DNA of 63,186 nt from a virus, in IMG/VR virus record IMGVR_UViG_3300032144_000010; one strand, 5' to 3'. Position 1 is the stretch's first letter; the number at the start of each line of letters is the position of its first letter. Positions 11,082-55,141 of this stretch are shown here, in pieces. A model generated the notes under the pieces. The model saw only the letters and a program-made list of their open reading frames with translations, made no database searches and was not told the origin of the DNA. The position numbers and the translations under genes are program-made.

Positions 11082-11765
11082 ATGAGCATGAGCAAGCACA
11101 ATCCCGTTGCCGCGAACGAGGCGGCCGTCGCAACGCTGCTGAGCCGCAGCGTTGCGGACGTATCCATCACGACGCTCGACCAGCGCATCGCCGGATCGCA
11201 CCAGCGTTTCGCCGCCGAGTGGGACGACCTGCACGACATCGCGGTCATCGCACTGGCGCACGCCGCCACGCACGGGGACTACACCCGGATGCAGGCGCTG
11301 TGGTCCGGGCACCGAGCGCCCGTCCGTAAGGCGCTGGCTGGCTGGCTGGGCGAGTGCAGCCCGCTGATCGTGTCGCAGGGCAAGCTCGCGAAGAGCCGCC
11401 TGCCGGATGCGCCCGACTACAGCGTGGAAGTGGCGCAGGCGCTGAACCCGGCGGACTGGAAGCAATCGCCCGCTGCGGCGGAACGCTTCCAGCTGGAACA
11501 GCTGGCGAAGTACCTCGCGAAGAAGGCGGACGGGCAAACCACGGAAGAGCGCACCGCGAAGGTGTGCGGGAAGCTGGCCCGCGAAGTGCGCCGCCTGATC
11601 GACGACACGGAAGAGGCGCAGGCGCTCGAAGAGGCGCAGGCGCTCGAAGAGGCGCAGGCGCTCGAAGAGGCGGGCGCGGTCAACGCCAAGCGCATCGCGG
11701 CGGACATGGCCGCGAACCCGGAGCGCACCAGCCACGACGTGAAGGCGGGCGCGGCGCTGGCCTGA
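11082..11765 (+). CDS. hypothetical acidic early protein with (EEAQAL)3 repeat (ATG at 11088 has better spacing from AGGAGGA)
   Basis: ORF with a strong SD (aggagga, 11074-11080) and an in-frame 18-bp tandem repeat. Confidence 0.65.
   Translation: MSMSKHNPVAANEAAVATLLSRSVADVSITTLDQRIAGSHQRFAAEWDDLHDIAVIALAHAATHGDYTRMQALWSGHRAPVRKALAGWLGECSPLIVSQGKLAKSRLPDAPDYSVEVAQALNPADWKQSPAAAERFQLEQLAKYLAKKADGQTTEERTAKVCGKLAREVRRLIDDTEEAQALEEAQALEEAQALEEAGAVNAKRIAADMAANPERTSHDVKAGAALA
11610..11663 (+). repeat. 18-bp perfect tandem repeat x3 (gaagaggcgcaggcgctc), plus a degenerate 4th copy to 11681
   Basis: Read directly; encodes EEAQAL x3. Confidence 0.9.
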
Positions 11766-27876: not shown

Positions 27877-28052
27877 GCCTGTCAGACGCCTGCGATGCCG
27901 TCATGAAGGCCCGGCGCGAGTACCACGCCGCTGCGCAGGAATACGAGCGCGTGCAGTACAAGCTGGACGTTGCCCGCAACCAGCTGGAGAGCGCGCAGCG
28001 TGACTTCGACAACGCCGTGCGCACCTTCGCTGAAAAAGCCAATGTCGCATGA
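27873..28052 (+). CDS. small coiled-coil protein (59 aa)
   Basis: ATGA overlap at 27873. Confidence 0.5.
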   Translation: MSLSDACDAVMKARREYHAAAQEYERVQYKLDVARNQLESAQRDFDNAVRTFAEKANVA

Positions 28053-28233
28053 CGACCTCGCGCGCGAACTCAAGGAAGCGCAGCGGCTGCTCCAGCGGGC
28101 GAACCTGCTGTGGGCGGCGGGTTTGTTGCGCGGGCCGATCCGTGACCCGGACGATGCCAACGAGTGGATCGAGAACGTGCGCAAGTACGTCAAACGAACC
28201 GTGCGGACGAAGCGTACCGCAGAGGGAGAGTGA
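28042..28233 (+). CDS. small helical basic protein (63 aa)
   Basis: ATG at 28042 within ORF 27970..28233. Confidence 0.5.
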   Translation: MSHDDLARELKEAQRLLQRANLLWAAGLLRGPIRDPDDANEWIENVRKYVKRTVRTKRTAEGE

Positions 28234-28741
28234 GCCCAAGTTCAGAGTGAACCAATGCGTGGAGCGAGTCATTCAAGACGACAGTACCAGATGTAGCGAA
28301 CGAGCCAGTGGTGACGATAGCGCCTAATGAGGAAAGCGAGTCTGTACAGGTGGAGTGAACCATGGACCTCGAACGAGCCACTAGGTCATAGCGGACCGGA
28401 CAACAGGAGCGAGCCCATCAACCTGTGAGTACCAAGAACTGTAAGCGAGCCATTCAAGAGAAGCGCACCGTTGAGGATGAGCGAGACAACTTTTGGAGCG
28501 AGCCTTATAGGTGATCGAGTCAACCCCTTAGAGGGCACCATATAGAGTGAACGAGCCCTTTTTCGTGGAGAGTACCAATCGACGAGAGCGAGTCGTGTTA
28601 AGGAAGCGCACCGTGGGTGCTGAACGAGTCTGGAGCGACGAGCGGACCACCTTATGCGAACGAGTCAACATCCATGAGAGAACCCCGTTTCACGAACGAG
28701 CCATTGTCCCAATGAGAACCACCCAACCGGAGCGACCTGCA
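28228..28741 (+). repeat. array of about 15 units with ~36-bp period. Each unit has conserved GA(A/G)CGAG(C/T)C, a variable segment, a conserved G-N-N-N-ACC type element and a second variable segment. TIGR-like (tandem interspaced guide RNA) array candidate.
   Basis: Core starts at 28228, 28262, 28298, 28334, 28371, 28407, 28443, 28479, (28496), 28513, 28549, 28586, 28622, 28658, 28694, with a truncated copy at 28729. The second element's ACC lies 23-25 nt after each core start. No consistent reading frame runs across the array. Confidence 0.75.
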
Positions 28742-29563
28742 ATGAACGAAGACCTGCAACCTGTCATTCGTCTGAGCCGCGACATCGCGGAAGCGGCGAA
28801 GACGCTGTCCGATCAAGAAGCGCGTTATCTCGTGGACGCGTATTACATGATGCAAGAGGATCGCAAGCGCGCGCACAACCAAGTGCGTGCTATGACCACC
28901 CCGAATCCCGAAAGCGAGCAGCAGCCGGAGCCGCACACCGTCATCCACTGGCTGGCGGAGCAGTCGTCCACGCTGGAGAAGCAGATTCAGCGCGCGCTCG
29001 ACAAGTACACCGACGGCCACCCGATGGGATCGTGGATGCGCAGCGTGAAAGGCATCGGTCCCGTACTGAGCGCGGGTTTGCTGGCGCACATCGACATCAG
29101 CAAGGCACCCACCGTGGGCCACATCTGGCGCTTCGCCGGGCTCGACCCCACCACGAAGTGGAACAAGGGCCAGAAACGGCCGTGGAACGCCACGCTGAAG
29201 ACGCTGTGCTGGAAGATCGGCCAGTCGTTCATGAAGCTCTCCAATGACCCGGAGTGCTACTACGGGCGCATCTACCGTGAGCGGAAAGCCTACGAGCAGG
29301 CCCGTAATGGGACAGCAGCGGTAGCCGAAGCTGTCGCCGCCGGGCTCGCGAAAGTCGGCAAGGACACGGAGGCGTACAAGCACCTGTCCGCTGGCAACTT
29401 GCCGCCGGGCCAGATCGACGCCCGCGCGCGCCGCTACGCGGTGAAGCTGTTCCTGTCGCACATGCACGACCAGTGGTATCGCCAGCACTTCGGCACCGCG
29501 CCGCCGCTGCCGTATCCCATCGCGCACCTTGGTCATGTCCACTTCATCGAGCCGCCGAAGTAA
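28742..29563 (+). CDS. Tas-like / IS110 Tnp_20-like helix-hairpin-helix protein without a DEDD or other nuclease domain (274 aa)
   Basis: MRSVKGIGPVLSAGLLAHIDISKAPTVGHIWRFAGLDPTTKWNKGQKRPWNATLKTLCWKIG aligns by eye to the Tnp_20 consensus (sipGiG...a..llaeigd..rF.s...l.ayaGL.P...SG..). A coiled-coil-like region precedes it. GGAG lies 10 nt upstream of the ATG at 28742. The ORF track opens at GTG 28547 inside the array. Confidence 0.6.
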   Translation: MNEDLQPVIRLSRDIAEAAKTLSDQEARYLVDAYYMMQEDRKRAHNQVRAMTTPNPESEQQPEPHTVIHWLAEQSSTLEKQIQRALDKYTDGHPMGSWMRSVKGIGPVLSAGLLAHIDISKAPTVGHIWRFAGLDPTTKWNKGQKRPWNATLKTLCWKIGQSFMKLSNDPECYYGRIYRERKAYEQARNGTAAVAEAVAAGLAKVGKDTEAYKHLSAGNLPPGQIDARARRYAVKLFLSHMHDQWYRQHFGTAPPLPYPIAHLGHVHFIEPPK

Positions 29564-29595: not shown

Positions 29596-30384
29596 ATGTC
29601 TGTCACTGCTTTCGTAGTAGATATAACCCCTGCTCTTGCTGAGCAGTGGTTGAAGATGAACACCAACAACCGCCTCGTGCGTGAAGCGCACGTCGTTGCT
29701 TTGTCGAAGGCCATGCTGGCTGGAGAGTGGAAGCTGAACGGCGACACCATACGCATGAACAGCAGCTTGCTGTTGGACGGCCAGCATCGGTTGATGGCTG
29801 TGGTGCGCTCCGGCGTAACAATCCAGTCCCTCGTGGTTACAGGCGTCAGCAGCGACGTTTTCGACACCATCGACAAGGGGCGCAAGCGCACCACCGGGGA
29901 CACTCTGCACTTGCGCGGAGAGAAGCACGCGTCGCTTCTTGCCGGGACGGCTCGCGCGCTGATCGAACTGGAATCGTGTTCCATGGTGATTCTGGCACGC
30001 AGCGACAAGGAGATCGTTGACTGCATCAATCGGCATCCGAGCGCGCGCGACGTCATATCACACAACTGCGGCACACGCGCGTTGCGCAAGTTGAAGATAT
30101 ACCCGCCGTCGCTGTACATGGCGATCAGGGTATTGGCTTCTGAGAAGGACAAGACGTTGGCGGACCTGTTCTTCGCGCACATCGACGACGGCGACGTGTT
30201 CCAGCCCGACGAACCGGTAAGTATCCTGCGCGAGCGCCTGATCGAAACGCGCTCTACCTCTCGTGCACACACGCGGGAAGCAGTAGCTATCCTTACCATC
30301 AAGGCGTGGAACGCCACGCGAGCGGGCAAGAAAGTTGGCGTTCTTCGCGCCCTTCGCGACGAATCCATTCCTGTTATCGCGTAA
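29596..30384 (+). CDS. ParB N-terminal (sulfiredoxin-fold) domain protein with DGQHR motif
   Basis: SLLLDGQHRLMAV motif. GGAGTAA lies upstream of the ATG at 29596. GC looks lower than the flanks by eye. Confidence 0.75.
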   Translation: MSVTAFVVDITPALAEQWLKMNTNNRLVREAHVVALSKAMLAGEWKLNGDTIRMNSSLLLDGQHRLMAVVRSGVTIQSLVVTGVSSDVFDTIDKGRKRTTGDTLHLRGEKHASLLAGTARALIELESCSMVILARSDKEIVDCINRHPSARDVISHNCGTRALRKLKIYPPSLYMAIRVLASEKDKTLADLFFAHIDDGDVFQPDEPVSILRERLIETRSTSRAHTREAVAILTIKAWNATRAGKKVGVLRALRDESIPVIA

Positions 30385-30402: not shown

Positions 30403-30639
30403 ATGGAAGGTTGGCAGGAACGGTTGGTCCAAGAGGGCATCGAACTGAGCGCACGGCTGGAGAAGCTGTGCCTGTTCATCGGCTCCAAAGAGTGGTTCAA
30501 CATCAGCGACGAGGAACAGAAGCTGCTGTGGGCGCAACACGACGCCATGCAGAAGTATCGCACTGTCCTCTTGGCCCGCACGCGGAGGCTTCCCAATGGG
30601 CGCGCACATGAAGCTGAAGCACCCGGAGTACGCCGATGA
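30403..30639 (+). CDS. hypothetical helical protein (78 aa)
   Basis: ORF with ERLVQEGIELSARLEKLCLFIGS..F..ISDEEQKLLWAQHDAMQKYRTVLLAR, a pattern common in small phage proteins (memory). Confidence 0.55.
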   Translation: MEGWQERLVQEGIELSARLEKLCLFIGSKEWFNISDEEQKLLWAQHDAMQKYRTVLLARTRRLPNGRAHEAEAPGVRR

Positions 30640-30866: not shown

Positions 30867-31134
30867 CCTCGACTCGCAGCGCCCACACCTGCAAGGTCAG
30901 GCGCGCTGCGGCGGCTGCCAGCACAAATGGCAGGCAGTGGTTCCAGTCGGCACGGTGACGCACCTTGAGTGCCCCGCATGTCACCGGACGCTGGGCGTTA
31001 TGACGCAGCACGTCCTGCGTGGCGACGACGACAGCTGGCATTGGGTCTGCAAGTGCGGCTGCGACATGTTCCACATCCACGAGCAAGGCACCTACTGCGC
31101 CTCGTGCGGCAGCTACAAATGGGAGAAGACATGA
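30850..31134 (+). CDS. Cys-rich zinc-ribbon protein (94 aa)
   Basis: CGGC...CPAC...CKCGC...CASCG clusters. Confidence 0.55.
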   Translation: MGDVVDLDSQRPHLQGQARCGGCQHKWQAVVPVGTVTHLECPACHRTLGVMTQHVLRGDDDSWHWVCKCGCDMFHIHEQGTYCASCGSYKWEKT

Positions 31135-31385
31135 CTCAGGTTCTCGACATCGACGACGGCGAACTGCCGCCGGAAGACCTCACGCCGGTAGACCCGCGCG
31201 TGCTGAAGCAACGCGAACGCGAGGAGATCGAAGCGCAGACCAAGGCGTTCCTCGAACGCGGCGGGCAGGTCAAGAACCTCGACCCCGGCATGCAGGGGTA
31301 CGAGTTCATCACCAAGTACGCGCAGCCAAAGAAGGGCTCGCCGCGCAAATTCAACGCATCCGTGGTGCCTGCATGCACACCCTGA
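31131..31385 (+). CDS. hypothetical protein with acidic N-terminus (84 aa)
   Basis: ATGA overlap at 31131. Confidence 0.5.
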   Translation: MTQVLDIDDGELPPEDLTPVDPRVLKQREREEIEAQTKAFLERGGQVKNLDPGMQGYEFITKYAQPKKGSPRKFNASVVPACTP

Positions 31386-38447: not shown

Positions 38448-38737
38448 CGACGGTTGGGCATGTCCTTGCCTTTGGTCAGGCCGTGCCCACGGTTCTTCTT
38501 CTGCGAGGCCATGCGCAGGTTCGAGTCCGCGTTGCCGCCGCCCTTCACGATGGGACGCTTGTGATCTACGTCCTTGCCGTCGCCCTTCTTTGCCAAGCCG
38601 CGCTCGATCATCTCGCGGCGGGCGGCGTTCCGCTTCGCGCGGTTCTTCCGCTGCTCGGGCGTGGCTTCGTAGCCTGAGATACGCGCCTTGATCTGGCTCG
38701 GCGTGCGGTGCTGGCTGGGGTCGCGCTTCTCTTTCAC
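38444..38737 (-). CDS. small basic HNH-like protein (97 aa); last gene of the virion arm
   Basis: DVDHKRPIVKGGGNADSNLRMASQKKNRG resembles the D-H...GG...N-L...N HNH core without the Cys ligands. ATGA-type overlap with the giant gene. Confidence 0.5.
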   Translation of the reverse strand: MKEKRDPSQHRTPSQIKARISGYEATPEQRKNRAKRNAARREMIERGLAKKGDGKDVDHKRPIVKGGGNADSNLRMASQKKNRGHGLTKGKDMPNRR

Positions 38738-41700
38738 TGCGTAATCCTCTGTGCTTCGCGGAGGTCCACGTACTTGCCTTGCTTGTACTCGCGGGCCTTC
38801 TTGCGCTGGTAGATGCGGCGCTGCTGGAGCTTACCATTCGTGATGCGCGTTTCCACGCCGGGATGCGCGCGGTTGAAGTCTGCGATCTCGCCGCGCTTCA
38901 GGTCGTCGGCCGCGTCGTAGTCCTCGTCCTCGATCAGTCGCGCCCAGCGGTCCATCAGATTGTCACGCTTACCTTCAATGACCTGCTTGGCCGTCAGCTG
39001 CTCGCCGCGCGGGTCGTACATTTCCTGCGCGCGGCGCGGCGTGAAGCCGATCATCTGGCGGGCTACGTCCCCCGCAGTGGCGTCGTCGGCACTGAGCAGC
39101 GTGACGCCGGACGTGTCTTCGATGCCCCGTCCGCCTTCCATCAAGCGCGCACCCTTGGAGATGTCGCTGACGCCTTTCGGCATCAGCAGTTCGCCCGCGC
39201 GCTGGTAGTTGCCGTCAGTGATGGCCGTCATGGCGTTTGCGCCCTTCACGAGCAGGCCCATCACCGGGCCAGCCAACGCCATTGCCATGTTGCCCAGCCA
39301 CTCCTCGGCGTCACGCGACGGCCGCAGCGGCTGCCACAGCAGGTGGCCGAAGCCGACGCGCTGGCCCCACTCGACACCCGTCGCCGCGCTCAGCGCTCCG
39401 TCGGACATCAAGAAGCCCATCTCGTCGCCTGCCCAGTCGCCGAACATCCGGCGTAGCGCCACGTCGGGGTTGCGCAGGGAGAGCGAGAGCTTGCGCACGT
39501 CCTCGTCCTCGGAATCGTCCCCGCCCATTCCGCGCAGCGCCATTCCAGCGCCGAACGCGATAGCCCGCAGCGGCTCGGCAAAAAGCCCGCCTACCGCGCC
39601 CAGCAATGCCCCGTTGATGCCAGCGAAGTAGAGCGCCGCCTTGCGCGCCGCCTTCTTCTCTGTGGCGGTTGCCGTGCGGCTGAAGAACGCCCTGTTGAAC
39701 GTGTGCAACGTGAGGCCGTACATCAGCATGCCGAAGGTCTTGTACAGAGCCACCAGCTTGAACCCGGTGAACTTGCGCAAGTGACGAGGCAGGTTCTCGA
39801 CCGAGTAGTTGCCCTGCGTCTGGCGCGTCATCTTCTCGGCGTAGTTGGTGGCATCGGCCAGCGTTGCCCCCCGCTCGCGCGCGAGTTCGTAGGCAGCCGT
39901 CGCCGTCACGAGCCGGTTCATGATCTCCGTCAGCTGCGGCATGACCTTGGCGATGGACTCGATGTACTGCGCCGTGTGCCCGACGGCCCGAGCCACCATT
40001 GACTTGCTGGGGCCAGCATGCGCCGCGCGCGCAAGCTCCGTCACCATCGTGGTGTCGATGACGCCACGAGCCACCAGTTCGCGCAGCATGCTCTTGACCT
40101 GCGGCGTGGCGCTGCTGGCGGTGAGGATCGCGTCGAGGGCGTCGTCGAGCCGCACGATCTGTCCGCTTGCTGCATCGCCGAGGGCGACGAACATGCGCTT
40201 GATGGCGGGCTTGGTGAAGCGGCCGGACACCCTCGCCATCTTGCGCCCGGTGCGCACCAGCCCATGTTCGCCCGCGATGATCGGCAGGCTGACCAGCCAC
40301 GGCTGCGTGGCGTTGCTGAGCGCGTGCGAGAGCGAGCCGAGGTACCACACGAACGCGAAGCGCGTCAGGCCGGACTCGAAGCGAGCCCAGCTGCCGTTGT
40401 TCTGGTGCATGGTCAGGTCCTGAAGACGCCGAGCCTTCAGTTCCTCGACGAACCGTCCGACAGAGGGCGGGTTGTCGGAGTTCTTATGGAGCGCGTTCAG
40501 ACCCGCGATGGCTTCCTGTTCGTCCACGACGTGTTTCAGGTTCGCGAGCGACCACGCGCCGGAGTAGCTGCGCTCGGCGAACGTCTTCAGCAAATTGTGG
40601 AAGTCGTTCTCGCTGCCACGAACGCGCTTGCGTTCAAGCTCGGACTTGCGCAGGTTCGAGTCTGCCAACAGGCGGATATGCGCGGCGCGCACGGCGTCCA
40701 TCGCGTCTGCTTTCGCTTCCCGTTCCTCCGTGCTATCCGAAGCCTTCCTGCGCCGCCCGCTCATGTAGGCGAGCAGTTCCCGGAGAGCGCCAGTCTCCAC
40801 AGACGTCGAGGTCTGCTTCACCGTCGGGAACTTGCCGACGTAGTAGCCCTCTCCCTTCAGCTGCTTGAGCATCGCAGCGGCTTCTTTCTCGTCGCCCGTG
40901 AACAAGGCGTGGTCTTCGTAGTCCACGACCGCTTCGTCGCCCATCATGTGGACGCGCCCATACTTGCGGCCGGGGTTCTTCACCCGCTCGCCCTTCAGTA
41001 CCTCCTGCACCAGCAACTTGCGAAATTCAGCCGAGTCCTTGGGGTCGAACGCGATCTTGAACTCGCCGTCGCGCTTGCCCTCGGCTACATACTCTCCGTG
41101 GCGCGTCAGCGGGAAATAGTCGCCCTTGACGCTGGTCTCCTCCAGAATTTCGTCTACGTGCTGCATCGTCCACTTGTTGGCGGCACCCGCGTTCTGCACG
41201 TTGGCAAATGCCTTGTCCACGATCTCCTGCCGCGCGCTCTTGTCCTTGGCGTTCATGAGCGCACCGACCAGCTGGATACGCGTGATCTCGGCCTTGTGCA
41301 GATGGTCGGACAGACCTCCGCGCTCCAGCACGGCATGCAGCTGTGCCCGCGTCGAGGTTTCGTGCAGCGCCTTGTAGTGGTTGCGCATGGCGATGTAGAC
41401 CTTCCTCGCCTGCGGCGAGAGAGCATCGAACGCCTTCTTCACGCGGTTGTAGACCTGCTGCGCTTCGGCTTCGACCCCCTTGAAGTGGTCGTGATCTGCA
41501 AAGGACTTGTCCGGGGAGATGTCATGCAGCGTGGCGTCGTTCGCCACCTTGGCAAGTGCTTCACCCTCGGCCATGGAGAGCTTGCGCGCTTCGCGCATCA
41601 CGGCGTCGGCGCGCTGCTGGATCATGCGAGCATCGTGCTGCTTGGCGCGGTACACCTTGATCCAGTCGCGCACTACCTGCGTCCCGTTGCCCGTGCTGGC

Positions 41701-44700
41701 GACAAGGCGCGCTCCGTAGTCGAGCAGATAGTCGTACAGCATGTACCCCAGCGTTTTCTCGTTCACCGCTTCGCGGATACTGTCGAAGAAGCTGTTCATG
41801 CGCGCACGCGCTTCGCGCGGCGTGCTGGGCGGGCCGCGATAGCCGTAGTTCTCACGGTCGTGCGGAGTAAGCGTAGGCTTGATGGCGTCCACGCGGTCGT
41901 CGAACGCGCGCATCTCGGCGTTGTACGCGTCGTGCCGCGCCTCGACCGTAAGCCGGTGCGCACCCGGCATCGCCATGGCATGCTCGATTGGCGAGAAGCT
42001 GGACTCCAGCTTCATCACTTCTTCAAGGACGGAGTTCTTGACGCCCTCCAGACCGAACGCTTTGCGAATCGCCTTGAGCAGCGACTTCCATACCGTTGAA
42101 GTTTCCGGCGTGCGCAGATGCTCAGGCGTTGCGATGCCGTCGAGGAAATACTGGAAGTTGATGTTCGTGAAGGCTTCCGACAGGAACTCCTCTGGCGTGC
42201 GCATGCCGTAGAACTGGTGCCAGTCAGCTTCCGGTACGCTGTTCTTTACGTGGTTGAACAGCGCGTCCACATGGCGCGCGAAGTTCTTGTCCACGGCGTA
42301 GCGCGTAACGGTGGCTGCGTGCACGATCTCGTGCGCGACCACGACGATGCTACCAAGCGTATTGGTTCCGAACTTGATGTAGTCCCGGTCTTTGAACAAC
42401 GGGATGCTATTGCGCAGGTTGTGGCTGTAAGCCGCCACGTTCGGCGTCACATGCGTGATGTCGAAGCGCGTCTGGAGACCGAGCTTTGCCAGCCGCGCGA
42501 GTAGCGGACGAAGGTTGGATGGAATCCCCTTACTGGCAAGCAACGCTTCCAGCAAGTGCTGGATCGTCGGCGCGCCGCCCGTACCTTCGCGCCGCCCACG
42601 CGAGTTCGCTTCACGAACCGCTTCCCATATGAGGCGCTGTTCGCTCGTCTGCGTTACCGGCGCGCTGCGCACGCCCCAGTCTTCCTCGAAGCCACTGACG
42701 TCTTCGTCGCCCCGGCGCTCAACGCCTTCGGCGTCAGCGGCCATCTCCGCTTCCTGCTCGGCGATCAGCTTGTCGAGTTCGCTCATCTCCGCCACGGACT
42801 CAGCTGCTGCGGCGGCTTCTTCGTCGGCCATCAGCCCGGCTTCGGCCATCTCCGTTTCGTCGGCCACGGTGCCCGTGCCAGCCAGTTCCGCAGCAGCACG
42901 CTCGTTGCTCTCCTCGGCTTCTTCCGCAGCGCGTGCTTCCTCGCGCGTGGCAGCCAAGCGCTCGGCGCGCGCGGCTTCGCGCTGCGCCTGCACGGCGGGC
43001 GTGATGCGCGCGTAGAAGTTCAGCCACTCGCGCTGCGCTGCCTCCGGCCATGCACCGCCGGGGAACTCGTTCATCGCCTTCGCAAGGCGCTCCTCGGCCC
43101 CTTCACGCAGCGGCGCGTAGTTGCTCATCAGCAGGTTCGAGTCCGACACGATGTCCTCGAACGCCTTTACCTGCTCGGGCGTGCGCCGCGACTCCACGTC
43201 CTTCGCCTGCGCTTCGTCCATGTCCGCGCGGTTGGCGCGGCGGAAGCGCGTGAACAGCGCGCCGATCAGCCCCATGTCGGGGAGGTCCCCTAGCAGTTCG
43301 CCTACGCGCTTCTTGGCGGCGGCTTCTTCCTCGACAGTCGTCATGTCGCGGACGTACTTGCCAGTCTCCTCGTCCCGGACAGCCGTATCGAGTACGCCGG
43401 GCTCAACCATGTCCAGCACGAAGCGGAACGTGTTCTGGATCGGGTTCGACACCAGTTCAAGCTCGCCTTTTGCGGTGTCACCAACGGTCGTGCCCTTGAC
43501 CGCTTCGCCGCCCTTCTCCTTGACCTCGGCGGCGCGGGCCTCCTTCTTGGCGTCTTCCTTGCGCTGCTCGCGCCGGACCTCGCCAATCTCGCCCTTGGTG
43601 GAAAGGCGGTGTGACCCGCGCTTGCCGACCCTCTTGCCGTTCAGCAGTACGTCGCCGGGGCGCACTTCGCCGACGCCGGGCAGCCGGTCGATCTCACCGA
43701 CTACCGTCAGCTGCTCGCCACGCGACGTGCGGAACTCCAGCCATCCGTTCTTCTGCGCGATCAGCTTCAGCGCCTTGCGGATGCGCGGCACCCGGCGGTC
43801 GCCTTCCTCGTAGCTCAGCGTGTAGGCCGGCTCCTGCGGCGCAGCGGGCGCGCTGCGCTCCTTGGAGACCGCCTTAGCCCGTTCTTTCTTCGTCGGGGCT
43901 ACCGCTGGAGCAGGAGCAGGTTGAGCGACAACGACAGCAGCAGGAGCAGCGCTCCCAGCAGCGCCACCAGCATCAGCAACCACCGGAGCAGCGGCCACAA
44001 CCACTGGAGCAGGAGCCGCAGCCGGAGCCACAACAGGTGCCGGAGCAGGGGCAGCCTTGCGGACAGGCGCAGCCGCGCGCCCTTCGAGAACGTCGAGGAC
44101 GCGTGCACGGAGTTCCTCCGCTGTCTTCTGCATGTCACCAACGCGGGCGTGCCGGCCGCGCGCGCCGGCCGCGCCGCGCCCGCCCGTGGTCTTGGCTTCC
44201 CGGTTGGCGTGCGAGATGCCTACCCGCCGGGCAATGCTGCCCAGCCGAGCCACGTCCGTGCCCCACGCCTCGTTGCCAGCGCCCCAGCCGGCAGCTGCCA
44301 GTTCCTTCAGCGCGGCGCTGGCTTCCACGATCCAGTCAGCGAGCGGCTTGGCCGCCGGCTTCTTGCGCCACTTGCTAGGCTTCTTCGACTTGGCCGTCTT
44401 GACGTTGGTGGCAGCGGCATAGCCCTCGTCCACCAGCCCGCGCAGCGCGCGCTCCAGCTGGGCTTCCTCCGGGGTCTTCGCCACGACAGCCTCACCGGGC
44501 GAGGCTGCGGCCTCTTGCTGAGCGACTGCTGTGGGGACGTTCTGGGGACTGACGACTTGCCCATGCACGACAGCCCCGTCCGGGGTGTGGCGCTCGACGG
44601 CCACCGCCTGATCGAGCGGGACCTGTGGCTTCGGCTCGACGTAGCCCAGAATCTTCGCGCGGGCCTCCTCACCACGGCCCAGCCGGTCGTACTCGTTCGC

Positions 44701-46779
44701 CACGTCGCGGCTGAGCGTGAACAGGACGCCCATCTGCTGGCCGGTCGGGTCGGGATGGTCGTTGACGGCAATGACCCGGCCCCGAAAGCGGTTCTGGATG
44801 TCCTGCATCTGCTGCGGGGTCGGGTTGGCGATCCAGATGGCCTTGCGCGGGTTGCCGGGGTTGGCAAGCTCCTCGACCTGCGCCTCGATGTCCTGCGGGG
44901 CTTCCGTGGTCGTCGGCGGAGCCGGGGTGCCGGGCGGCGGCTCGTCCCCGGTCGATTGCGCTACCGGGCCACCGAACTCGCCGCCTTGGGCTCCAGCCGC
45001 CAGCAGGGCATCCAGTTCAGCGCCAGTGGGGTCCGCAGCCGCTCCCTGCGGGCCTACAGCCGCCGCAGGGGCACCGGGGGCACTCGGAGCCGCACCGGGC
45101 GCTGCCGGGGCTCCAGCGCCGCCTACGGGCGGCACAGTGACGTTTTTGAGGCGCTCGTTGAGCCCAGCGAGGGCGTTGTCAACGACGTGCAGGCGCATCG
45201 TCGCGACCTTGACCGCGTTCTCGTCCCCGGCAGCGGTAGCTGCCTCCAACTCCTTCGTTGCCCGCGCGCGAGTACGGTTGGCCGCGTCGATCTCCCCGAC
45301 GAGTCGCTTGTACTGCTCGACCGGTGGCGTCTGGATAGCCGGTGCCGGGGCGGGCGCAGCGCCGGGGGTCGCCGCCGCGCCCCCCACCGCCGTTGGTGCT
45401 GCGCCGCCTCCGGCTCCCGGTGCAGCAGTGGCAGCCTGAGCCGCCGCCTGCTGCTGTTGTGCGTCGAGGACCTGTTGAGCGCGCTCACGCGCCGTCGCAT
45501 TGGCCTGCGTGACGATCTCGGGTACGGACGGTGTCGCCCCCGGCGGAGCGTTGGCCTTGACCGCATCGACGACGGCCGGGTCCACTTCCGGCGTTGTCGG
45601 GGATGGCTCCCCCGGCTTAACCGTCGGTTTTTCGCCCTTCGCGAACGGTGCAGTCGCGATCTCGGCCGGGGCCATCGCGACCTCGCCGAAAAGCTCTCCA
45701 GCCATCGCCCCACCGCTGGTGATCTTGCCGGACTCGGCCAGCTGTCCAGCCCCTTCCCCAGCAGCACCCATCGCGCCCTGCCCGAGGACTTCCGCAATGT
45801 GCGCGAGCGCCTTCTTCGCCAGCCCGGACTTCTCCGCCATCTTGACCAGCCGCCCGGCCATGCCGAGCGAGAGGGTGTCGATGACCGCTACCGGGACGGC
45901 GTGCAGCGCCTTGCTCGACCGAAGCTTTTCGTACAGGTTCGGGTCCGCGTAGAACTTGGCGATGTCCTCCGGGTTGGTAACGTCCAGCCCCGACGACGCC
46001 ATGGCCTCCTGCATGCCCGCCTGATAGTCCATGGCGAACGAGCCGGTGAAGCCGCCTGCGCCTGCGCCAATGACAGTGCCTATCGGACCTCCAATCGCGG
46101 AGCCGCCTGCGCCGCCTGCCAGTGCGCCGACCAGCGGCGCGGCGGACATGGGGAGGGACTCAGCAGCCGTGGCGACGGCGAGGCGGGGGTTCTTCGCGTA
46201 CAGCTTCACGGCGTCCCAGAAGTCGGCCTTGTCGATCTCCTGCATGACCGCCTTGTCTTCGTCGGTCAACTGCGTCGTGGCGCGGATGTCCCGCTGGGCC
46301 TGTGCGTACTCCTCGTAGTCGCCCGTCATCTGGTCCGGCATCGCCATGACGGACTCGTAGCCGCGCTTCGCAGGCGCGCCGACGTAGCGTGTCAGCCAGC
46401 CAGCGTCTTCGTCGCCGGCTCCTTCGACAGGAATCGTCTTGTCGAGCCACGCGCGCAACTCGTCGTTGCTCATGCTCGACGTATCGACGTCTTCTTCGTC
46501 GCCGGCTTCCTCCTGCTCCTGCGCGCCGACAGCTGCTTCGTGCATGCCTGCCAGCTGCTCGGGAGGCGGCGGAGGAGCCATGAGGCGCGGCATCTGTGGC
46601 TGGTTGGCAGCGGCAATGGCTTCGATGTCCGCCACATGCTGCTGCATGATCTGGTCGGCGCGAGCGCGCGCACGATCCATGAGCGCCTGCGCAGGCATGG
46701 CGGATGCGCCGACGCGCGGCTGCTGGCCGGGCGGCGGGGGAATGGCCGAGCGAACGTCGTCTTCGACGAGAGGGTACAT
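38734..46779 (-). CDS. giant (2,681 aa) virion/ejection 'polyvalent' protein with zincin-like motif
   Basis: Single uninterrupted ORF. HExxH in VVVAHEIVHAATV with a downstream EEFLSEAF. YFPLTRHGEY resembles the PLxRFG motif. Long Ala/Pro/Glu low-complexity linkers. Gly/Ala-rich hydrophobic segments occur near both ends. Confidence 0.8.
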   Translation of the reverse strand: MYPLVEDDVRSAIPPPPGQQPRVGASAMPAQALMDRARARADQIMQQHVADIEAIAAANQPQMPRLMAPPPPPEQLAGMHEAAVGAQEQEEAGDEEDVDTSSMSNDELRAWLDKTIPVEGAGDEDAGWLTRYVGAPAKRGYESVMAMPDQMTGDYEEYAQAQRDIRATTQLTDEDKAVMQEIDKADFWDAVKLYAKNPRLAVATAAESLPMSAAPLVGALAGGAGGSAIGGPIGTVIGAGAGGFTGSFAMDYQAGMQEAMASSGLDVTNPEDIAKFYADPNLYEKLRSSKALHAVPVAVIDTLSLGMAGRLVKMAEKSGLAKKALAHIAEVLGQGAMGAAGEGAGQLAESGKITSGGAMAGELFGEVAMAPAEIATAPFAKGEKPTVKPGEPSPTTPEVDPAVVDAVKANAPPGATPSVPEIVTQANATARERAQQVLDAQQQQAAAQAATAAPGAGGGAAPTAVGGAAATPGAAPAPAPAIQTPPVEQYKRLVGEIDAANRTRARATKELEAATAAGDENAVKVATMRLHVVDNALAGLNERLKNVTVPPVGGAGAPAAPGAAPSAPGAPAAAVGPQGAAADPTGAELDALLAAGAQGGEFGGPVAQSTGDEPPPGTPAPPTTTEAPQDIEAQVEELANPGNPRKAIWIANPTPQQMQDIQNRFRGRVIAVNDHPDPTGQQMGVLFTLSRDVANEYDRLGRGEEARAKILGYVEPKPQVPLDQAVAVERHTPDGAVVHGQVVSPQNVPTAVAQQEAAASPGEAVVAKTPEEAQLERALRGLVDEGYAAATNVKTAKSKKPSKWRKKPAAKPLADWIVEASAALKELAAAGWGAGNEAWGTDVARLGSIARRVGISHANREAKTTGGRGAAGARGRHARVGDMQKTAEELRARVLDVLEGRAAAPVRKAAPAPAPVVAPAAAPAPVVVAAAPVVADAGGAAGSAAPAAVVVAQPAPAPAVAPTKKERAKAVSKERSAPAAPQEPAYTLSYEEGDRRVPRIRKALKLIAQKNGWLEFRTSRGEQLTVVGEIDRLPGVGEVRPGDVLLNGKRVGKRGSHRLSTKGEIGEVRREQRKEDAKKEARAAEVKEKGGEAVKGTTVGDTAKGELELVSNPIQNTFRFVLDMVEPGVLDTAVRDEETGKYVRDMTTVEEEAAAKKRVGELLGDLPDMGLIGALFTRFRRANRADMDEAQAKDVESRRTPEQVKAFEDIVSDSNLLMSNYAPLREGAEERLAKAMNEFPGGAWPEAAQREWLNFYARITPAVQAQREAARAERLAATREEARAAEEAEESNERAAAELAGTGTVADETEMAEAGLMADEEAAAAAESVAEMSELDKLIAEQEAEMAADAEGVERRGDEDVSGFEEDWGVRSAPVTQTSEQRLIWEAVREANSRGRREGTGGAPTIQHLLEALLASKGIPSNLRPLLARLAKLGLQTRFDITHVTPNVAAYSHNLRNSIPLFKDRDYIKFGTNTLGSIVVVAHEIVHAATVTRYAVDKNFARHVDALFNHVKNSVPEADWHQFYGMRTPEEFLSEAFTNINFQYFLDGIATPEHLRTPETSTVWKSLLKAIRKAFGLEGVKNSVLEEVMKLESSFSPIEHAMAMPGAHRLTVEARHDAYNAEMRAFDDRVDAIKPTLTPHDRENYGYRGPPSTPREARARMNSFFDSIREAVNEKTLGYMLYDYLLDYGARLVASTGNGTQVVRDWIKVYRAKQHDARMIQQRADAVMREARKLSMAEGEALAKVANDATLHDISPDKSFADHDHFKGVEAEAQQVYNRVKKAFDALSPQARKVYIAMRNHYKALHETSTRAQLHAVLERGGLSDHLHKAEITRIQLVGALMNAKDKSARQEIVDKAFANVQNAGAANKWTMQHVDEILEETSVKGDYFPLTRHGEYVAEGKRDGEFKIAFDPKDSAEFRKLLVQEVLKGERVKNPGRKYGRVHMMGDEAVVDYEDHALFTGDEKEAAAMLKQLKGEGYYVGKFPTVKQTSTSVETGALRELLAYMSGRRRKASDSTEEREAKADAMDAVRAAHIRLLADSNLRKSELERKRVRGSENDFHNLLKTFAERSYSGAWSLANLKHVVDEQEAIAGLNALHKNSDNPPSVGRFVEELKARRLQDLTMHQNNGSWARFESGLTRFAFVWYLGSLSHALSNATQPWLVSLPIIAGEHGLVRTGRKMARVSGRFTKPAIKRMFVALGDAASGQIVRLDDALDAILTASSATPQVKSMLRELVARGVIDTTMVTELARAAHAGPSKSMVARAVGHTAQYIESIAKVMPQLTEIMNRLVTATAAYELARERGATLADATNYAEKMTRQTQGNYSVENLPRHLRKFTGFKLVALYKTFGMLMYGLTLHTFNRAFFSRTATATEKKAARKAALYFAGINGALLGAVGGLFAEPLRAIAFGAGMALRGMGGDDSEDEDVRKLSLSLRNPDVALRRMFGDWAGDEMGFLMSDGALSAATGVEWGQRVGFGHLLWQPLRPSRDAEEWLGNMAMALAGPVMGLLVKGANAMTAITDGNYQRAGELLMPKGVSDISKGARLMEGGRGIEDTSGVTLLSADDATAGDVARQMIGFTPRRAQEMYDPRGEQLTAKQVIEGKRDNLMDRWARLIEDEDYDAADDLKRGEIADFNRAHPGVETRITNGKLQQRRIYQRKKAREYKQGKYVDLREAQRITQ
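43471..43480 (+). repeat. 10/11 copy of the motif (TGCGGTGTCAc), the only one seen in the late arm (antisense to the giant gene)
   Basis: cctttTGCGGTGTCAccaacgg. Confidence 0.75.
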
Positions 46780-51327: not shown

Positions 51328-51494
51328 GGGATCATTCCTTCGGGCAGGGTTGATTTCCGCTCGATCTTAGTCTCCCCGTCCCGCTCCGTCACCACGCAAA
51401 TGAGCAGGCAGAACACCCGGAGGCTCTCCCCGTCCCTCGTGAACGTGGTCGAACAGCCGCTGAGCAGCAGGGTGAGCGCGAGGGCGTATTTCAC
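51324..51494 (-). CDS. small lipoprotein (56 aa, GTG start), directly downstream of the long tail fibre
   Basis: VKYALALTLLLSGC is a signal peptide plus lipobox (LSGC). GTGA overlap with the fibre stop, and AAGGTGA upstream. Confidence 0.55.
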   Translation of the reverse strand: MKYALALTLLLSGCSTTFTRDGESLRVFCLLICVVTERDGETKIERKSTLPEGMIP

Positions 51495-54400
51495 TGTTTC
51501 ACCTTGAAGCACCGCAGCTTCGAGCCGGTCTCCAGTGAGCGTGCGATGGACGCGTTGAAGTTGAGCGAGGTCATGTTCGCGGCGCTCGTCCAATAGAACA
51601 TGAAGTGGACGACGCACAGCCCGCCTGTCCCGCCGCGCGAGTATTGCGCCATGACGCGGGTCAGCCCGTTCACGTCCTTGCGAATCCAGATCGTGCCACT
51701 CGCTTGCTCGTTGGCGTTCAGCACGCCGATGACCGAGTCGTTGCCGTTGCCTGCGGTCACGGTCGTGCCGCCGCCGACTGTCCACTCGTACCAGTAGTTG
51801 GTGTCGGTCGTGTCCCCGTTGAAGCGCAGCCGCAGGTAGGTCTGCGTGGCCGTCGCGTTCAGGAACTCGAACTGGATGAAGTAGGACTCGTCCACTCCAA
51901 GGTCGAGTCCCGACAGACCGAGGTTCGTCGCGGCCGCGCCCAGCGTCGTGCCGCCAACGTAGGTCATCGCCCCCGGCACCGCGCCGCCTGCGAGGCGATA
52001 GAGCGTGTAGGTGGCGGCGGCCGTGCGCCGCGCGCGGAACGCCGCGCTGGTGCCCGCCGTCACGCTCATGTTGCCCTTCGCGGTCCAGCCCGCCGACATG
52101 GTCATCACCGCCGTGCCGGTGCCCGTGTTGACCACGTTGAACTCCCACGACTGGTCTACGCCCAGCGTGGAGAAGTTCGTGTCCATGTTGGTGCCGTTGG
52201 TCAGCGTCAGCGTACCCCCGGTGCCGGAATACTCGACGATGCCGTTACGCAGTTCCGATGCCGTGATGCTAGCGCTCGCGGCGCTTTTCAAAATCTCCGT
52301 CGTCTGCGCTTGCAGCAGCATCGTGGCGAACAAGTTGCCGGTAACATCCAGCGGGTGGACCGGCGGCGTCAGCCCGCCGACGCGAACAGCAGCACCAAAG
52401 GCACTCAACCCCGAGTTCACGCGCAGCGACCACGGGTTCGTGATGGTGACGTTCGTGCCCGCGATGGGCGGGCCAGTGATACCGAGCGTTGCGAGTTCGG
52501 TGTACACGACGCCCGTGTTCGCAGCGGCGATGGTGTGGCCCGCGAGCAAATGCGAGTAACCAACGGCATTCACCGCACTCACCGCGCTCGTAAGGTCGGT
52601 GTACGTCTTGGTGCTGGAACGAAGCCCGACAACGGAGTTGACCCCCAACGCATCGCCGGAGAAGTTGGAGTTGGTCAAGTTGACCGAACCGTTCTCCAAG
52701 ATGTTCAGCGCGTTGGCGCGAAACCCCGCGTTGTCCATCAGGTTGAACGTGATGCGGCACCCGATAACACCCGACCCCGGCACGACTGCTGCTGCGCCGA
52801 CGGAGAACGTCATGGCCCCCGCCAGAATCAGCGTCGCACTGCCGTCCGAAGCGTAGGCCCGGTAGGTAGCCAGCACGTCGCTGGAGACCACACTGTCAGC
52901 AGCACCTGCACCGATGACGCCGATAACCGCAGAGCGTGTCTTCACTGCCGAGAAGACAACACCACTGGCATCCGCGCTGTAGCGCACCGACGAGATCATC
53001 GTCTGTGCATCGGACGTGCCGTGAATCTGGAGCGGGCCAACGGACCCCGCGAGACCGAGGCTCGCGTTGTGCCCGATGATGAGCTTGGAACCGAGCGGAA
53101 GCGAGACACCGTCGCTGACCGTTACGGCCCTCTGTGCCCCGGCGTAAGCCAGCGCAACACCGCCAGCGTGCGCGATAGTAATAGCGTCCTGCCCGCCACC
53201 GCCTGCTGCGTTCCTGACCTCGAAGCGCCACGTCTGCGCTGTCGTGTCCCAGATGATGTTAGCGCGCGCGTTCGTGATCTCGCGGAAGCGCAGGATGGCG
53301 TTGTTGGTGCCAATCACGGGGGCCGAAAGGTGCACCACTGCGCTCGCAGCGGCGGGCGAGATGAACAGGTCGCCCGTCATCGTGTCGCCGGTATCGTTGA
53401 CCTTGCCATCCAGCGCCGTCTGGAGGCCGGTCACTTCGCCGATGATGATGCCCGCCCACGCGGTCGCGTAATCGGTCGCGCTCGTCTTGCGCAGGTACTG
53501 GCCTGTCGTGCCGCCAGTCGGCAACTCGTTCAGCGGGTTGTACACGATGCCGACGTTCAGCGCGTTGTTGTTGCCGAAGTCGCCGCCTGCCGTGAGGAAC
53601 GCGGACACCGGGATCGTGCGGAAGCCGCCCGGCGTGCCGGGGTTGCTGTCCACGACAGCGCCCGTGACGAGGAAGACCTTGGTCGAGGACGCCCCGGTGC
53701 CGTCGAAAATCTGCAAGTAGTCGCCCGGCCCGAGCGTGTCCCAGATAAGCGACAGGTTGTTGCCGGGGTCGCTGGTCTCGTGGACGCGGATCGTCCCCGT
53801 GCTGTTCTGCACGACGTTGTCGAACTTGAGGCGGCCGCTCGCCGGGTCCGTCACGCTGACGTCGCTGGTGAAGCGGTAGTTCATCACCACGCCGCCAGAC
53901 GCGCCGGTCGCGCGGCTCACCCAGTTGCCAGAGTCGTCCAGCACGCGGCCGCTCACGGTCGTCGGCGGCGGCACGAAACCCGCGACCGTCGGAGTGAACA
54001 GCGGATGCTCCGCGATGCCGCCTGCGCCTTTGTGCGCGATGGGAACGTACTTGGCGCTGAGCAGGACGCCCGCTTCCGACAGCGCCGTGGTGGCGTTCCA
54101 TGTGCCCGTCAGCGTGCCGCCTGCGGCGCTGGTCGCGAGCTTGATCGCATTGTCGAAGAACAACTCCACGCGGTCGTTGTAGAACCCGCGCAGGAAGGTC
54201 TCGGCGTTGCTGCCCGCCGAGTCGCGCCCTTGGATCAGCGTGGCACCCGAAGCCGACTGCCACACGAACGACGCGCGAGCGAGTCCGGTTTCGCCGAGGT
54301 TGAACGCCGCGTTCTGCCCCGTGTCGCCATAGCTGTTGATGTTGGCAGCGGAACCAGAACCCAAGCGGTTCACGACGAGGTTGCCCGTCATCGTATCGCC

Positions 54401-55141
54401 CGTGATGTTCACGTAGCGCGCGTCGGCGTCCACCCACGCGCCGTTGGTACGAACGTAGTGGTTCGAGTCCGGTGCGTCAGAGATGCCGCCACCCCCGCCG
54501 CCCGGCTGGTCGTACCAGCCCTTCACGCCGACCGCGTTAGTACCGTAGAGCTTAGAGTTGCCGGGGGTCGCGACGTCGCCGTCCAGCGCGAGCGACATGC
54601 CACTGGAGAGCGCACCGCCGCCGATCACCGACATTGGCGTGGAGATAGTCGTTGCTTCCAACGAGTCCACGTCGCCCTGCGCGAGGATCGCGGCCAACTG
54701 CGCGGCGTCCGCCGTAGTCTGTGCCGCGCTTGCGGCGAGCATTGCGTCGTAAGCATCGAGCAGCGCTTGGTCGGCCTTGCCGTCGATGATCCCCAGCGCA
54801 GCGGCAAGGCCGGTCACGTCCGCGATAGCGTGCGTGTGATCTTCGGGCGGGAACTCGGACGGCACCCCGATGATGTCGCCCCAATTCACCGAACCAGAAG
54901 CCCCACCATTCGACGAACCGCTCCCGTCGTGCTTGGTCGTTTCGAGATGGTAGTCGATGGTCGCTTGCAGGATGCCTTCGAGGTCGGCTACCCGCACCGC
55001 GCTTTCGTTGATGTCGCCGCGCCAGCGCAGCAGCGTCTCGACGGTGCCGATGACGTCTTCGAGCGTGCGGTGCCCGCCGTAGCGCTTGTTCGGGCGCGCG
55101 AGCGCACCGATGATGCGCGAACGGAGCGACAGCGTACTCAC
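51491..55141 (-). CDS. tail fibre protein (1,216 aa from GTG 55141)
   Basis: GTGA overlap with the upstream gene. Fibre-type motifs ISDAPDSNHYVRTNGAWV and NITGDTMTGNLVV / GDTMTGDLFIS, with Gly/Ser/Thr/Ala-rich beta repeats. The upstream 248 aa of the 1,464-aa ORF lie inside the 55138..57192 gene. Confidence 0.8.
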   Translation of the reverse strand: MSTLSLRSRIIGALARPNKRYGGHRTLEDVIGTVETLLRWRGDINESAVRVADLEGILQATIDYHLETTKHDGSGSSNGGASGSVNWGDIIGVPSEFPPEDHTHAIADVTGLAAALGIIDGKADQALLDAYDAMLAASAAQTTADAAQLAAILAQGDVDSLEATTISTPMSVIGGGALSSGMSLALDGDVATPGNSKLYGTNAVGVKGWYDQPGGGGGGISDAPDSNHYVRTNGAWVDADARYVNITGDTMTGNLVVNRLGSGSAANINSYGDTGQNAAFNLGETGLARASFVWQSASGATLIQGRDSAGSNAETFLRGFYNDRVELFFDNAIKLATSAAGGTLTGTWNATTALSEAGVLLSAKYVPIAHKGAGGIAEHPLFTPTVAGFVPPPTTVSGRVLDDSGNWVSRATGASGGVVMNYRFTSDVSVTDPASGRLKFDNVVQNSTGTIRVHETSDPGNNLSLIWDTLGPGDYLQIFDGTGASSTKVFLVTGAVVDSNPGTPGGFRTIPVSAFLTAGGDFGNNNALNVGIVYNPLNELPTGGTTGQYLRKTSATDYATAWAGIIIGEVTGLQTALDGKVNDTGDTMTGDLFISPAAASAVVHLSAPVIGTNNAILRFREITNARANIIWDTTAQTWRFEVRNAAGGGGQDAITIAHAGGVALAYAGAQRAVTVSDGVSLPLGSKLIIGHNASLGLAGSVGPLQIHGTSDAQTMISSVRYSADASGVVFSAVKTRSAVIGVIGAGAADSVVSSDVLATYRAYASDGSATLILAGAMTFSVGAAAVVPGSGVIGCRITFNLMDNAGFRANALNILENGSVNLTNSNFSGDALGVNSVVGLRSSTKTYTDLTSAVSAVNAVGYSHLLAGHTIAAANTGVVYTELATLGITGPPIAGTNVTITNPWSLRVNSGLSAFGAAVRVGGLTPPVHPLDVTGNLFATMLLQAQTTEILKSAASASITASELRNGIVEYSGTGGTLTLTNGTNMDTNFSTLGVDQSWEFNVVNTGTGTAVMTMSAGWTAKGNMSVTAGTSAAFRARRTAAATYTLYRLAGGAVPGAMTYVGGTTLGAAATNLGLSGLDLGVDESYFIQFEFLNATATQTYLRLRFNGDTTDTNYWYEWTVGGGTTVTAGNGNDSVIGVLNANEQASGTIWIRKDVNGLTRVMAQYSRGGTGGLCVVHFMFYWTSAANMTSLNFNASIARSLETGSKLRCFKVKQ

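Follow-up and report, generated by a model that had tools for sequence, protein, structure and literature searches.

A putative dual-repeat TIGR-TasA locus with covarying closing base pairs in a complete tailed-phage genome

The IMG/VR virus record IMGVR_UViG_3300032144_000010 (63,186 nucleotides, hereafter the window) carries an array of short periodic repeats (28192..28737, + strand) followed by the co-directional gene tasA (28742..29563, + strand). A preliminary description, made from the letters and the open reading frames (ORFs) of the window, had proposed a TIGR-Tas-type RNA-guided system at this place. We conclude from the sequence, with a probability of roughly 93%, that the locus (28192-29563) encodes a dual-repeat TIGR-TasA system in a complete tailed-phage genome. 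The two termini of the window (1-127 and 63060-63186) are identical over 127 nt, which gives a genome size of 63,059 bp; because of these identical ends, the window is a complete phage genome, circularly permuted or terminally redundant. Tailed-phage PHROG matches in the window comprise a portal/adaptor, a large terminase, an internal virion protein and a primase-helicase, and the array was found to lie in the replication module, 3' of the DNA polymerase A gene. An independent assembly from another sequencing run (L015) was 100% identical to the locus over 6.8 kb and, being identical, says nothing about the turnover of spacers between close relatives. At the nucleotide level, the locus matched no GenBank phage.

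The array consists of 15 units and a terminal truncated edge. Each unit opens with the edge repeat GARCGAGYC (9 nt), which is followed by spacer A (8-10 nt), the loop repeat GAGNGNACC (9 nt, with an invariant CC) and spacer B (8-9 nt), for a total of 34-37 nt (exactly 36 nt in 11/15 units). Over its 63,186 bases, the + strand of the window holds 18 exact copies of the core GA[AG]CGAG[CT]C, and ten of them fall between 28262 and 28694; ten copies in 510 bp compare with 0.065 expected from the background rate (Poisson P ~4e-19). Counted from 28228, the core spacings are 34, 36, 36, 37, 36, 36, 36, 34, 36, 37, 36, 36, 36 and 36 nt. The lag-36 autocorrelation of the array (0.44-0.46) is the maximum of the whole window, with lags 18, 72 and 54 next, and the information content per position amounts to 0.7-2.0 bits in the edge, 0.1-2.0 in the loop and mostly <0.4 in the variable segments. 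The invariant positions are intact: A2, G5, A6, G7 and C9 of the edge in 14/15 copies, and G5, C8 and C9 of the loop in 15/15. Edge and loop share the pattern G-A-G/R-N-G-N-N-C/Y-C, with a box D-like G-A-G/R at the 5' side and a box C-like CC(A) at the 3' side, and all repeats lie on one strand, co-directional with tasA. Predicted RNA structure in the array is no stronger than in shuffled sequences (z = +0.47), and the array was therefore assigned to the dual-repeat and not the stem-loop type. An Rfam search of the array returned no family match.

These measurements refine the preliminary description. Its 14 listed core starts are real, all of them being recovered, together with the copy at 28496, when one mismatch was allowed; its spacing of 34-37 nt, mostly 36, agrees with ours, and its second conserved element corresponds to the loop repeat with the invariant CC. 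The motif at 28496 is present but represents the edge-like loop of unit 9 instead of an extra copy, and the terminal truncated core exists but starts at 28730, not 28729. The array begins not at 28228, as had been thought, but at 28192, where one further unit (unit 1) overlaps the 3' end of the upstream ORF; it was found by a composite-pattern search, 36 nt 5' of the first listed core. The variable stretches, given as 10-12 nt, measure 8-10 nt, and the protein encoded next to the array has 273 residues, not 274.

This 273-aa protein matched the NCBIfam profile NF052498, 'TIGR-Tas system RNA-guided endonuclease' (TIGR_Tas_endo), with 237 bits against a cutoff of 100 (E 1.7e-70), end to end (profile 1-215, TasA residues 27-247). 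A phmmer search of PDB sequences returned TasR (9mty, E 1.1e-14) and TasH (E 1.3e-11), followed by IS621 (E 0.001), and the match to TasR/TasH takes in the C-terminal GHVxxIxPP motif. In a tblastn search of GenBank phages, TasA found the TasH gene of Salicola phage CGphi29. In Pfam the only match was Transposase_20 (PF02371, 24.2 bits, residues 100-139), which confirms the Tnp_20 resemblance noticed earlier. The AlphaFold2 model, built with 34 homologues, is all-helical with a long N-terminal helical pair (mean predicted local distance difference test score, pLDDT, 86.5). The structural comparison suggested in the preliminary description was carried out with Foldseek against the PDB, and the first 11 matches, each with probability 1.0, were complexes of TasH or TasR, with IS621 the next in rank. 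Neither Pfam, the PDB sequence search nor the AlphaFold2 model revealed an HNH, a RuvC or any other extra domain, the N-terminal part being a helical coiled-coil only, and the earlier view of the protein as nuclease-less is upheld by sequence and model alike. TaTasR (PDB 9MTY) and SpTasH (PDB 9W03/9W04/21KL), which share the homologous Nop domain with the protein of the window, are nuclease-bearing, whereas the 273-aa protein lacks RuvC and HNH and is only 21-25% identical to them in sequence.

SpTasH processes its own pre-tigRNA via Y289/H296 in a flexible C-terminal loop (PMC13421893), and this Y/H dyad is reported to be conserved across dual-repeat systems (bioRxiv 10.64898/2026.09.09.750476). 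In a pairwise alignment Y289/H296 of SpTasH corresponded to Y258/H265 of TasA with the same 7-residue spacing, so that the dyad is kept and Y258/H265 is the predicted processing dyad. H265 is invariant among the 34 homologues, and the loop that carries the dyad has a low pLDDT, as expected of a flexible loop. The gene itself is a full-length ORF in which 64 family-invariant residues are kept, H265 among them. Its product is, as predicted from these features, a nuclease-less Nop-domain TasA.

Faure et al. 2025 list the exact TasA protein, with its coordinates, in their Table S1 as 'IMG_3300032144&&0315910_10000219&&28741_29563_1'. The window is the contig of that entry, and the gene is already part of the published Tas catalogue. 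The locus is therefore known, as a member of the catalogue of the paper that described the family in 2025, and is no new kind of system; the compensated mosaic of its edge repeats is a modest new observation. Standard annotation names tasA 'transposase IS116/IS110/IS902' or 'hypothetical', and the recognition of a TIGR-Tas locus from raw sequence has its value mainly as validation. The identity proposed in the preliminary description is borne out by the curated hidden Markov model, by the sequence and fold matches to TasR/TasH, by the array anatomy and by the Table S1 listing.

Dual-repeat TIGR arrays are described as having two alternating 8-12-nt repeats, ~9-nt spacers, a unit of ~36 nt and usually 5-15 units (Faure et al. 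2025), and 4,126 such arrays have been published. In this type, a box D-like 5' motif and a box C-like 3' motif occur in both edge and loop and pair with each other, a pseudo-symmetry that suits a protein dimer. With the published TIGR-TasA dual-repeat systems (Faure et al., Science 2025, PMC12045711; Flavonifractor plautii FpTasA) the locus has in common a solo, phage-borne Nop-domain Tas next to an array in which edge and loop repeats alternate, with ~9-nt tandem spacers, a 36-nt unit and a truncated terminal edge. It differs from them in that the array lies only upstream and runs into the ribosome-binding site of tasA, with no terminator, and in that its repeats are unusually heterogeneous, with closing pairs compensated unit by unit. 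IS110-family recombinases (IS621, PDB 8WT6) share the RNA-binding Transposase_20/Nop-like domain, but TasA has no DEDD/RuvC-like catalytic domain and scored 37 bits against a cutoff of 140 with NCBIfam NF033542, and the guide of IS110 is a single bridge RNA in place of an array of 36-nt units. The locus also resembles CRISPR arrays, in that a repeat-spacer array is (here by prediction) processed to guides and in that spacers differ among relatives. A CRISPR array, however, has one 25-36-nt repeat and a ~30-nt spacer, whereas here two 9-nt repeats alternate with two 9-nt spacers and neither cas genes nor an adaptation module accompany them. PADLOC gave no match for TasA or the adjacent ParB-like protein, and the preliminary statement that the array is not CRISPR holds.

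The TasA family is large (>6,300 matches). We examined as relatives nine IMG/VR loci (50-71% identity), one NCBI metagenome contig (78%) and a contig of Paraburkholderia sp. BR10936 (66%), the last probably a prophage since it carries two phage-integrase genes. Through this Paraburkholderia contig, the relatives suggest a host among the Burkholderiales. In all of them (11/11) we found arrays of 35-36-nt period built on the same edge, GAGCGAGCC(A), or its variants GAGTGARCC(C) and GAACGAGTC(A); GAGAGAACC(A) is one of their loop repeats. The arrays sit upstream and/or downstream of tasA, and downstream arrays end in a truncated edge followed by a hairpin and T-run terminator. Like the array of the window, the upstream array of the Paraburkholderia contig (L017) has its terminal edge fused to the ribosome-binding site, and it ends in GGAGCGAGGACATG. 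None of the window's spacers was shared with the arrays of the relatives, 8-mer matches being scattered in coding sequence. Thus the comparison of relatives that had been called for came out as predicted for guides, repeats being kept and spacers not in the 11 related loci. Spacers have a G+C content of 44% (28201-28729) vs 64% for the genome, and in nine related loci spacer G+C was 4-16 points under that of the locus; AT-rich targets or avoidance of RNA structure are possible reasons.

The degeneracy of the edge repeat proved to be ordered. The published synthetic TaTasR tigRNA1 reads AGCCA-UGCAAGCCC-UGAAACCCA-UUGCCUUAG-UGCG (oligonucleotides of the TaTasR work); from these ends, the TaTasR edge is UGCG|AGCCA, nearly identical to the edge GAGCG|AGCCA of the window. 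We therefore let each predicted tigRNA begin at edge position 6 and end at position 5 of the following edge, the cut being homologous to that of TaTasR. Position 8 of an edge and position 3 of the next edge are Watson-Crick complementary in 15/15 units (C-G in 8, U-A in 6, A-U in 1; exact permutation P 2.2e-5), and position 7 is likewise complementary to position 4 of the next edge (G-C in 14, A-U in 1; 100% Watson-Crick). As controls, the 8-3 comparison gave 5/14 when made within the same repeat copy and 6/14 with edges one step further. A MAFFT alignment of the 15 units misplaced a gap in the two 37-nt units, so the covariation count was restricted to the 11 units with a length of exactly 36 nt, all 15 being counted by a separate script. 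In the 11-unit count the 2-bp helix was 100% paired, both pairs having changes on both sides, and its covariation score was reached by 0/500 shuffles. Sliding the columns by 1-3 cut the paired fraction to 12-55%, except for the +3 slide, in which one pair remained (82%).

Closing pairs also covary between arrays, L001 having A-U at 7-4 and L004 U-A at 8-3, and an analogous G3-C8 pair is present in 13/15 loop repeats of the window. The TasR structure shows two edge-repeat base pairs (Faure et al. 2025), with which the closing pairs found here agree. Because these pairs are Watson-Crick in 15/15 units, the A/G and C/T degeneracy of the edge consensus is best read as compensation and not as decay. 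The covariation lends indirect support to a cut site between edge positions 4 and 7. One array with unit-by-unit compensation provides in-genome evidence for selection on the closing pairs, and this compensation indicates that the unit of selection would span from mid-edge to mid-edge.

The 15 units, all on the + strand, are written here as edge / spacer A / loop / spacer B, with the predicted tigRNA after each. Unit 1 (28192..28227; tigRNA 28197-28232) has a degenerate edge, AAACGAACC, followed by spacer A GTGCGGACG, loop AAGCGTACC and spacer B GCAGAGGGA, and its closing pairs are compensated (A7-U4 and C8-G3). It is followed by unit 2, of 34 nt (28228..28261; GAGTGAGCC / CAAGTTCA / GAGTGAACC / AATGCGTG; tigRNA 28233-28266), unit 3, with the closing pair U-A (28262..28297; GAGCGAGTC / ATTCAAGAC / GACAGTACC / AGATGTAGC; tigRNA 28267-28302), and unit 4 (28298..28333; GAACGAGCC / AGTGGTGAC / GATAGCGCC / TAATGAGGA; tigRNA 28303-28338). 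Unit 5 is 37 nt long (28334..28370; AAGCGAGTC / TGTACAGGTG / GAGTGAACC / ATGGACCTC; tigRNA 28339-28375), and units 6 (28371..28406; GAACGAGCC / ACTAGGTCA / TAGCGGACC / GGACAACAG; tigRNA 28376-28411), 7 (28407..28442; GAGCGAGCC / CATCAACCT / GTGAGTACC / AAGAACTGT; tigRNA 28412-28447) and 8 (28443..28478; AAGCGAGCC / ATTCAAGAG / AAGCGCACC / GTTGAGGAT; tigRNA 28448-28483) come next. Unit 9, again of 34 nt (28479..28512; GAGCGAGAC / AACTTTTG / GAGCGAGCC / TTATAGGT; tigRNA 28484-28517), contains the edge-like loop and the sole A-U closing pair, with A at edge position 8 and T at position 3 of the next edge. Unit 10 (28513..28548; GATCGAGTC / AACCCCTTA / GAGGGCACC / ATATAGAGT; tigRNA 28518-28553) precedes unit 11, of 37 nt (28549..28585; GAACGAGCC / CTTTTTCGTG / GAGAGTACC / AATCGACGA; tigRNA 28554-28590), which is followed by units 12 (28586..28621; GAGCGAGTC / GTGTTAAGG / AAGCGCACC / GTGGGTGCT; tigRNA 28591-28626), 13 (28622..28657; GAACGAGTC / TGGAGCGAC / GAGCGGACC / ACCTTATGC; tigRNA 28627-28662), 14 (28658..28693; GAACGAGTC / AACATCCAT / GAGAGAACC / CCGTTTCAC; tigRNA 28663-28698) and 15 (28694..28729; GAACGAGCC / ATTGTCCCA / ATGAGAACC / ACCCAACCG; tigRNA 28699-28734). 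The terminal 3'-truncated edge, GAGCGACC (28730..28737, + strand), forms with the preceding G the GGAG Shine-Dalgarno of tasA.

A mechanism can be proposed on the anatomy, homology, covariation and keeping of repeats but not of spacers, as established in this analysis, with transcription and processing of the array, DNA binding and repression carried over from published work on homologues. The + strand of the array (28192-28737) would be transcribed, probably when transcription of the replication genes that lie upstream as an operon continues into it; as neither a promoter nor a terminator was predicted in between, co-transcription with these genes and tasA is favoured. A TasA dimer would then bind the precursor at the edge and loop repeats, which share the box D-like and box C-like elements, and the Y258/H265 dyad in the C-terminal loop would cut it mid-edge, between G5 and A6 of GARCG|AGYC. 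The predicted products are tigRNAs of ~36 nt, 5'-AGYCN / spacer A / loop / spacer B / GARCG-3', whose ends would be joined by the two base pairs G7-C4 and Y8-R3. TasA homologues have been found to bind 36-nt tigRNAs, with Tas-dependent processing (PMC12045711). Each tigRNA may direct a TasA dimer to a DNA site of ~16-18 bp that contains, on one strand, spacer A and then the reverse complement of spacer B, tandem-spacer DNA recognition having been described for Tas homologues (Faure et al. 2025, PMC12045711). Since TasA has no nuclease domain, the expected outcome is binding that blocks transcription or replication, and not cleavage; its homologues are RNA-guided transcriptional repressors (bioRxiv 10.64898/2026.09.09.750476).

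Target searches followed the topology of the published TaTasR oligonucleotides, in which the target strand is spacer A plus the reverse complement of spacer B (TGCAAGCCC + CTAAGGCAA). The complete genome was searched with the 15 spacer pairs in two registers, with central gaps of 0-4 nt and <=3 mismatches, alongside three wrong-topology controls. For none of the 15 spacer pairs did the phage's own genome contain a site with <=2 mismatches, and the site counts at 3-4 mismatches equalled those of the wrong-topology controls. Because the genome is complete and no spacer pair matches it, regulation of the phage's own genes through fully matched sites is disfavoured. Three exact-match scans of public collections gave nothing above chance. 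The exact 18-mers of units 7 and 10 had one match each in IMG/VR, at chance level; the contigs matched have 43-44% GC, and no other spacer matched close by. The exact 18-mer of unit 3 had 36 matches in GTDB genomes, including small orthologue clusters in Lysobacter and Gemmatimonadota, all of them in-frame FKTRYI codons in unrelated proteins; we rejected these as targets and attribute them to chance and codon bias.

These null searches, in the phage's own genome and in the public collections, weigh against the TIGR-TasA assignment, as do several features of the array. The spacer/repeat boundary is ambiguous by one nucleotide, the spacers being 8 nt or 9 nt; four units are 34 or 37 nt long and two loop repeats, those of units 3 and 4, are without the G3-C8 pair, and some units may thus be defective. 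The repeats are more heterogeneous than those of most relatives (lag-36 autocorrelation 0.46 vs 0.54-0.65). Scans detected no sigma-70-like promoter upstream of the array and no terminator after it, tasA starting 5 nt past the truncated edge. A decaying, non-functional TIGR-TasA remnant, with a drifted array that no longer holds working guides, would explain the nine sequence variants among the 15 edge copies, the variation of unit length between 34 and 37 nt, the two unpaired loops, the one edge-like loop and the failure of the target searches. We regard such decay as highly unlikely, however, since all 15 units show compensation of the edge variation, a pattern that calls for continued selection on the RNA, and since the invariant edge and loop positions are intact, tasA is full-length with its 64 family-invariant residues, H265 included, and a second sequencing run independently yielded an assembly of the identical locus.

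The repeats might, instead of specifying RNA guides, be DNA sites (iterons or a parS-like centromere) for a Rep protein or for the DGQHR-motif ParB/Srx-like protein encoded 859 bp downstream of the array, with tasA between; iterons or a centromere for a partition protein had been named as the alternative in the preliminary description. The regular spacing of short repeats is typical of iterons, and a position 3' of the DNA polymerase A gene, among the replication genes, would suit them. We nevertheless find this alternative extremely improbable, because the array accompanies tasA and not the ParB-like gene: array and tasA occur together in 11/11 relatives, the nine tested by tblastn being without a ParB-like gene, whereas 0/80 loci of the ParB-like family have TasA and the two with a 36-nt period are plain 12-nt tandem repeats. 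The complementarity of positions 8 and 3 in 15/15 units, moreover, has no rationale for double-stranded DNA and fits processed RNA ends, all repeats are on one strand and co-directional with tasA, and the intervening segments are unconstrained. That the region is instead protein-coding, as an N-terminal repeat extension of TasA from a GTG at 28547 with a 12-residue 'ER[AV]' period, is scarcely credible. From 28547 to 28741 there is indeed an open stretch in phase with tasA, but it covers only 5/15 units, with stop codons upstream; homologues all start within residues 1-6 of the protein that begins at ATG 28742, which is preceded by a GGAG Shine-Dalgarno, and the arrays of relatives also lie downstream of tasA, where they end in terminators. 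A dual-repeat TIGR-TasA system thus remains our preferred reading.

Viewed along its length, the array is a mosaic of units with three closing-pair types (C-G, U-A and A-U), which are always matched, whereas each of the related arrays is nearly pure for one type (U-A in L004, C-G in the others). Because each pair is always matched, the switches between types fall inside the edge, at the predicted RNA cut. One possible, though on balance unlikely, explanation is that whole units, of the size of a mature tigRNA, are inserted or exchanged when arrays are built or reshuffled; the route could be mid-edge recombination between arrays, or it could be RNA-templated. If true, this would be the first clue to how TIGR arrays gain spacers.

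Within the array, units 3 and 8 have nearly identical spacers A (ATTCAAGAC, 28271-28279, and ATTCAAGAG, 28452-28460), with different spacers B and closing pairs. Duplicated units or half-spacers within a locus were also seen in the relatives L005, L008 and L001, and together these cases suggest that arrays grow by duplication. Two further observations concern the junction with tasA. As the 36-nt period equals 12 codons, the frame in phase with tasA stays open from the GTG at 28547 to 28741 and repeats 'ER[AV]' every 12 residues, and gene callers could wrongly take the last five array units into tasA, which would gain 65 residues. The Shine-Dalgarno GGAG of tasA lies just 5' of the predicted processing site 28734|28735 (region 28729-28744); as a speculation, processing of the terminal edge would strip the tasA mRNA of its Shine-Dalgarno and make TasA synthesis self-limiting.

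The gene downstream of tasA (29596..30384, + strand) begins 33 nt past it, is co-directional and encodes a 262-aa protein of phrog_5931, a family in which a DGQHR motif is invariant. No Pfam, PDB-sequence (including a family profile search) or PADLOC match was obtained for this protein. Its AlphaFold2 model (pLDDT 89) has a ParB/Srx-like N-terminal fold, with weak Foldseek matches of this part to pNOB8 ParB-N (E 0.02, probability 0.91) and sulfiredoxin. Operons of tasA and tasParB, with a DGFHR motif, were described by Faure et al. 2025 (Methods, fig. S14; PMC12045711). The arrangement in the window has in common with these operons tasA, a dual-repeat array and a co-directional gene with a ParB/DndB-like motif 33 nt downstream; TasParB, compared by description only, carries DGFHR, and the neighbour in the window DGQHR. 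The DGQHR family is common in phages that lack tasA: TasA was found within 5 kb in 0/80 IMG/VR loci encoding it, three further contexts of the family contained no Tas-like gene, and tblastn detected no DGQHR gene near tasA in the nine relatives tested. A TasA-TasParB operon was thus rejected for the window, on the motif, on the 0/80 co-occurrence and on the absence from the nine relatives. Since the 80 loci are without TasA and the gene is missing beside the tasA of relatives, we treat the adjacency as unproven and probably incidental, and the gene as a neighbour only. A 36-nt periodicity was present in only two of the 80 loci, L046 (73-432, GNTCAAGTCNGG) and L039 (7273-7470, GATGGCTCTGGC), both of which encode the DGQHR family and consist there of long, plain 12-nt tandem repeats that are not TIGR-like.

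Upstream, a 63-aa ORF (28044..28233, + strand) overlaps unit 1 with its last 42 nt; an equivalent gene is called in L015 and no family match was found for its product, which we mention as context rather than as an established part of the system. Further downstream, a 78-aa ORF (30403-30639) matches Pfam PF21825 (crAss001_48-related; 'Sequestin' in the precomputed annotation) with E 3e-14, and an 84-aa product (~31131-31385) has, via the identical locus L015 (5390-5644), a precomputed Pfam match to PF20661, SutA-RBD (RNA-polymerase-binding domain). Elsewhere in the window, a minus-strand ORF (38734-46779) encodes 2,681 aa, and the structural module holds ORFs of 1,464 aa (51491-55885) and 1,280 aa (59019-62861). 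Finally, a perfect 18-nt tandem repeat of 3.5 copies (GAAGAGGCGCAGGCGCTC) is located at 11610-11672, within a long ORF.

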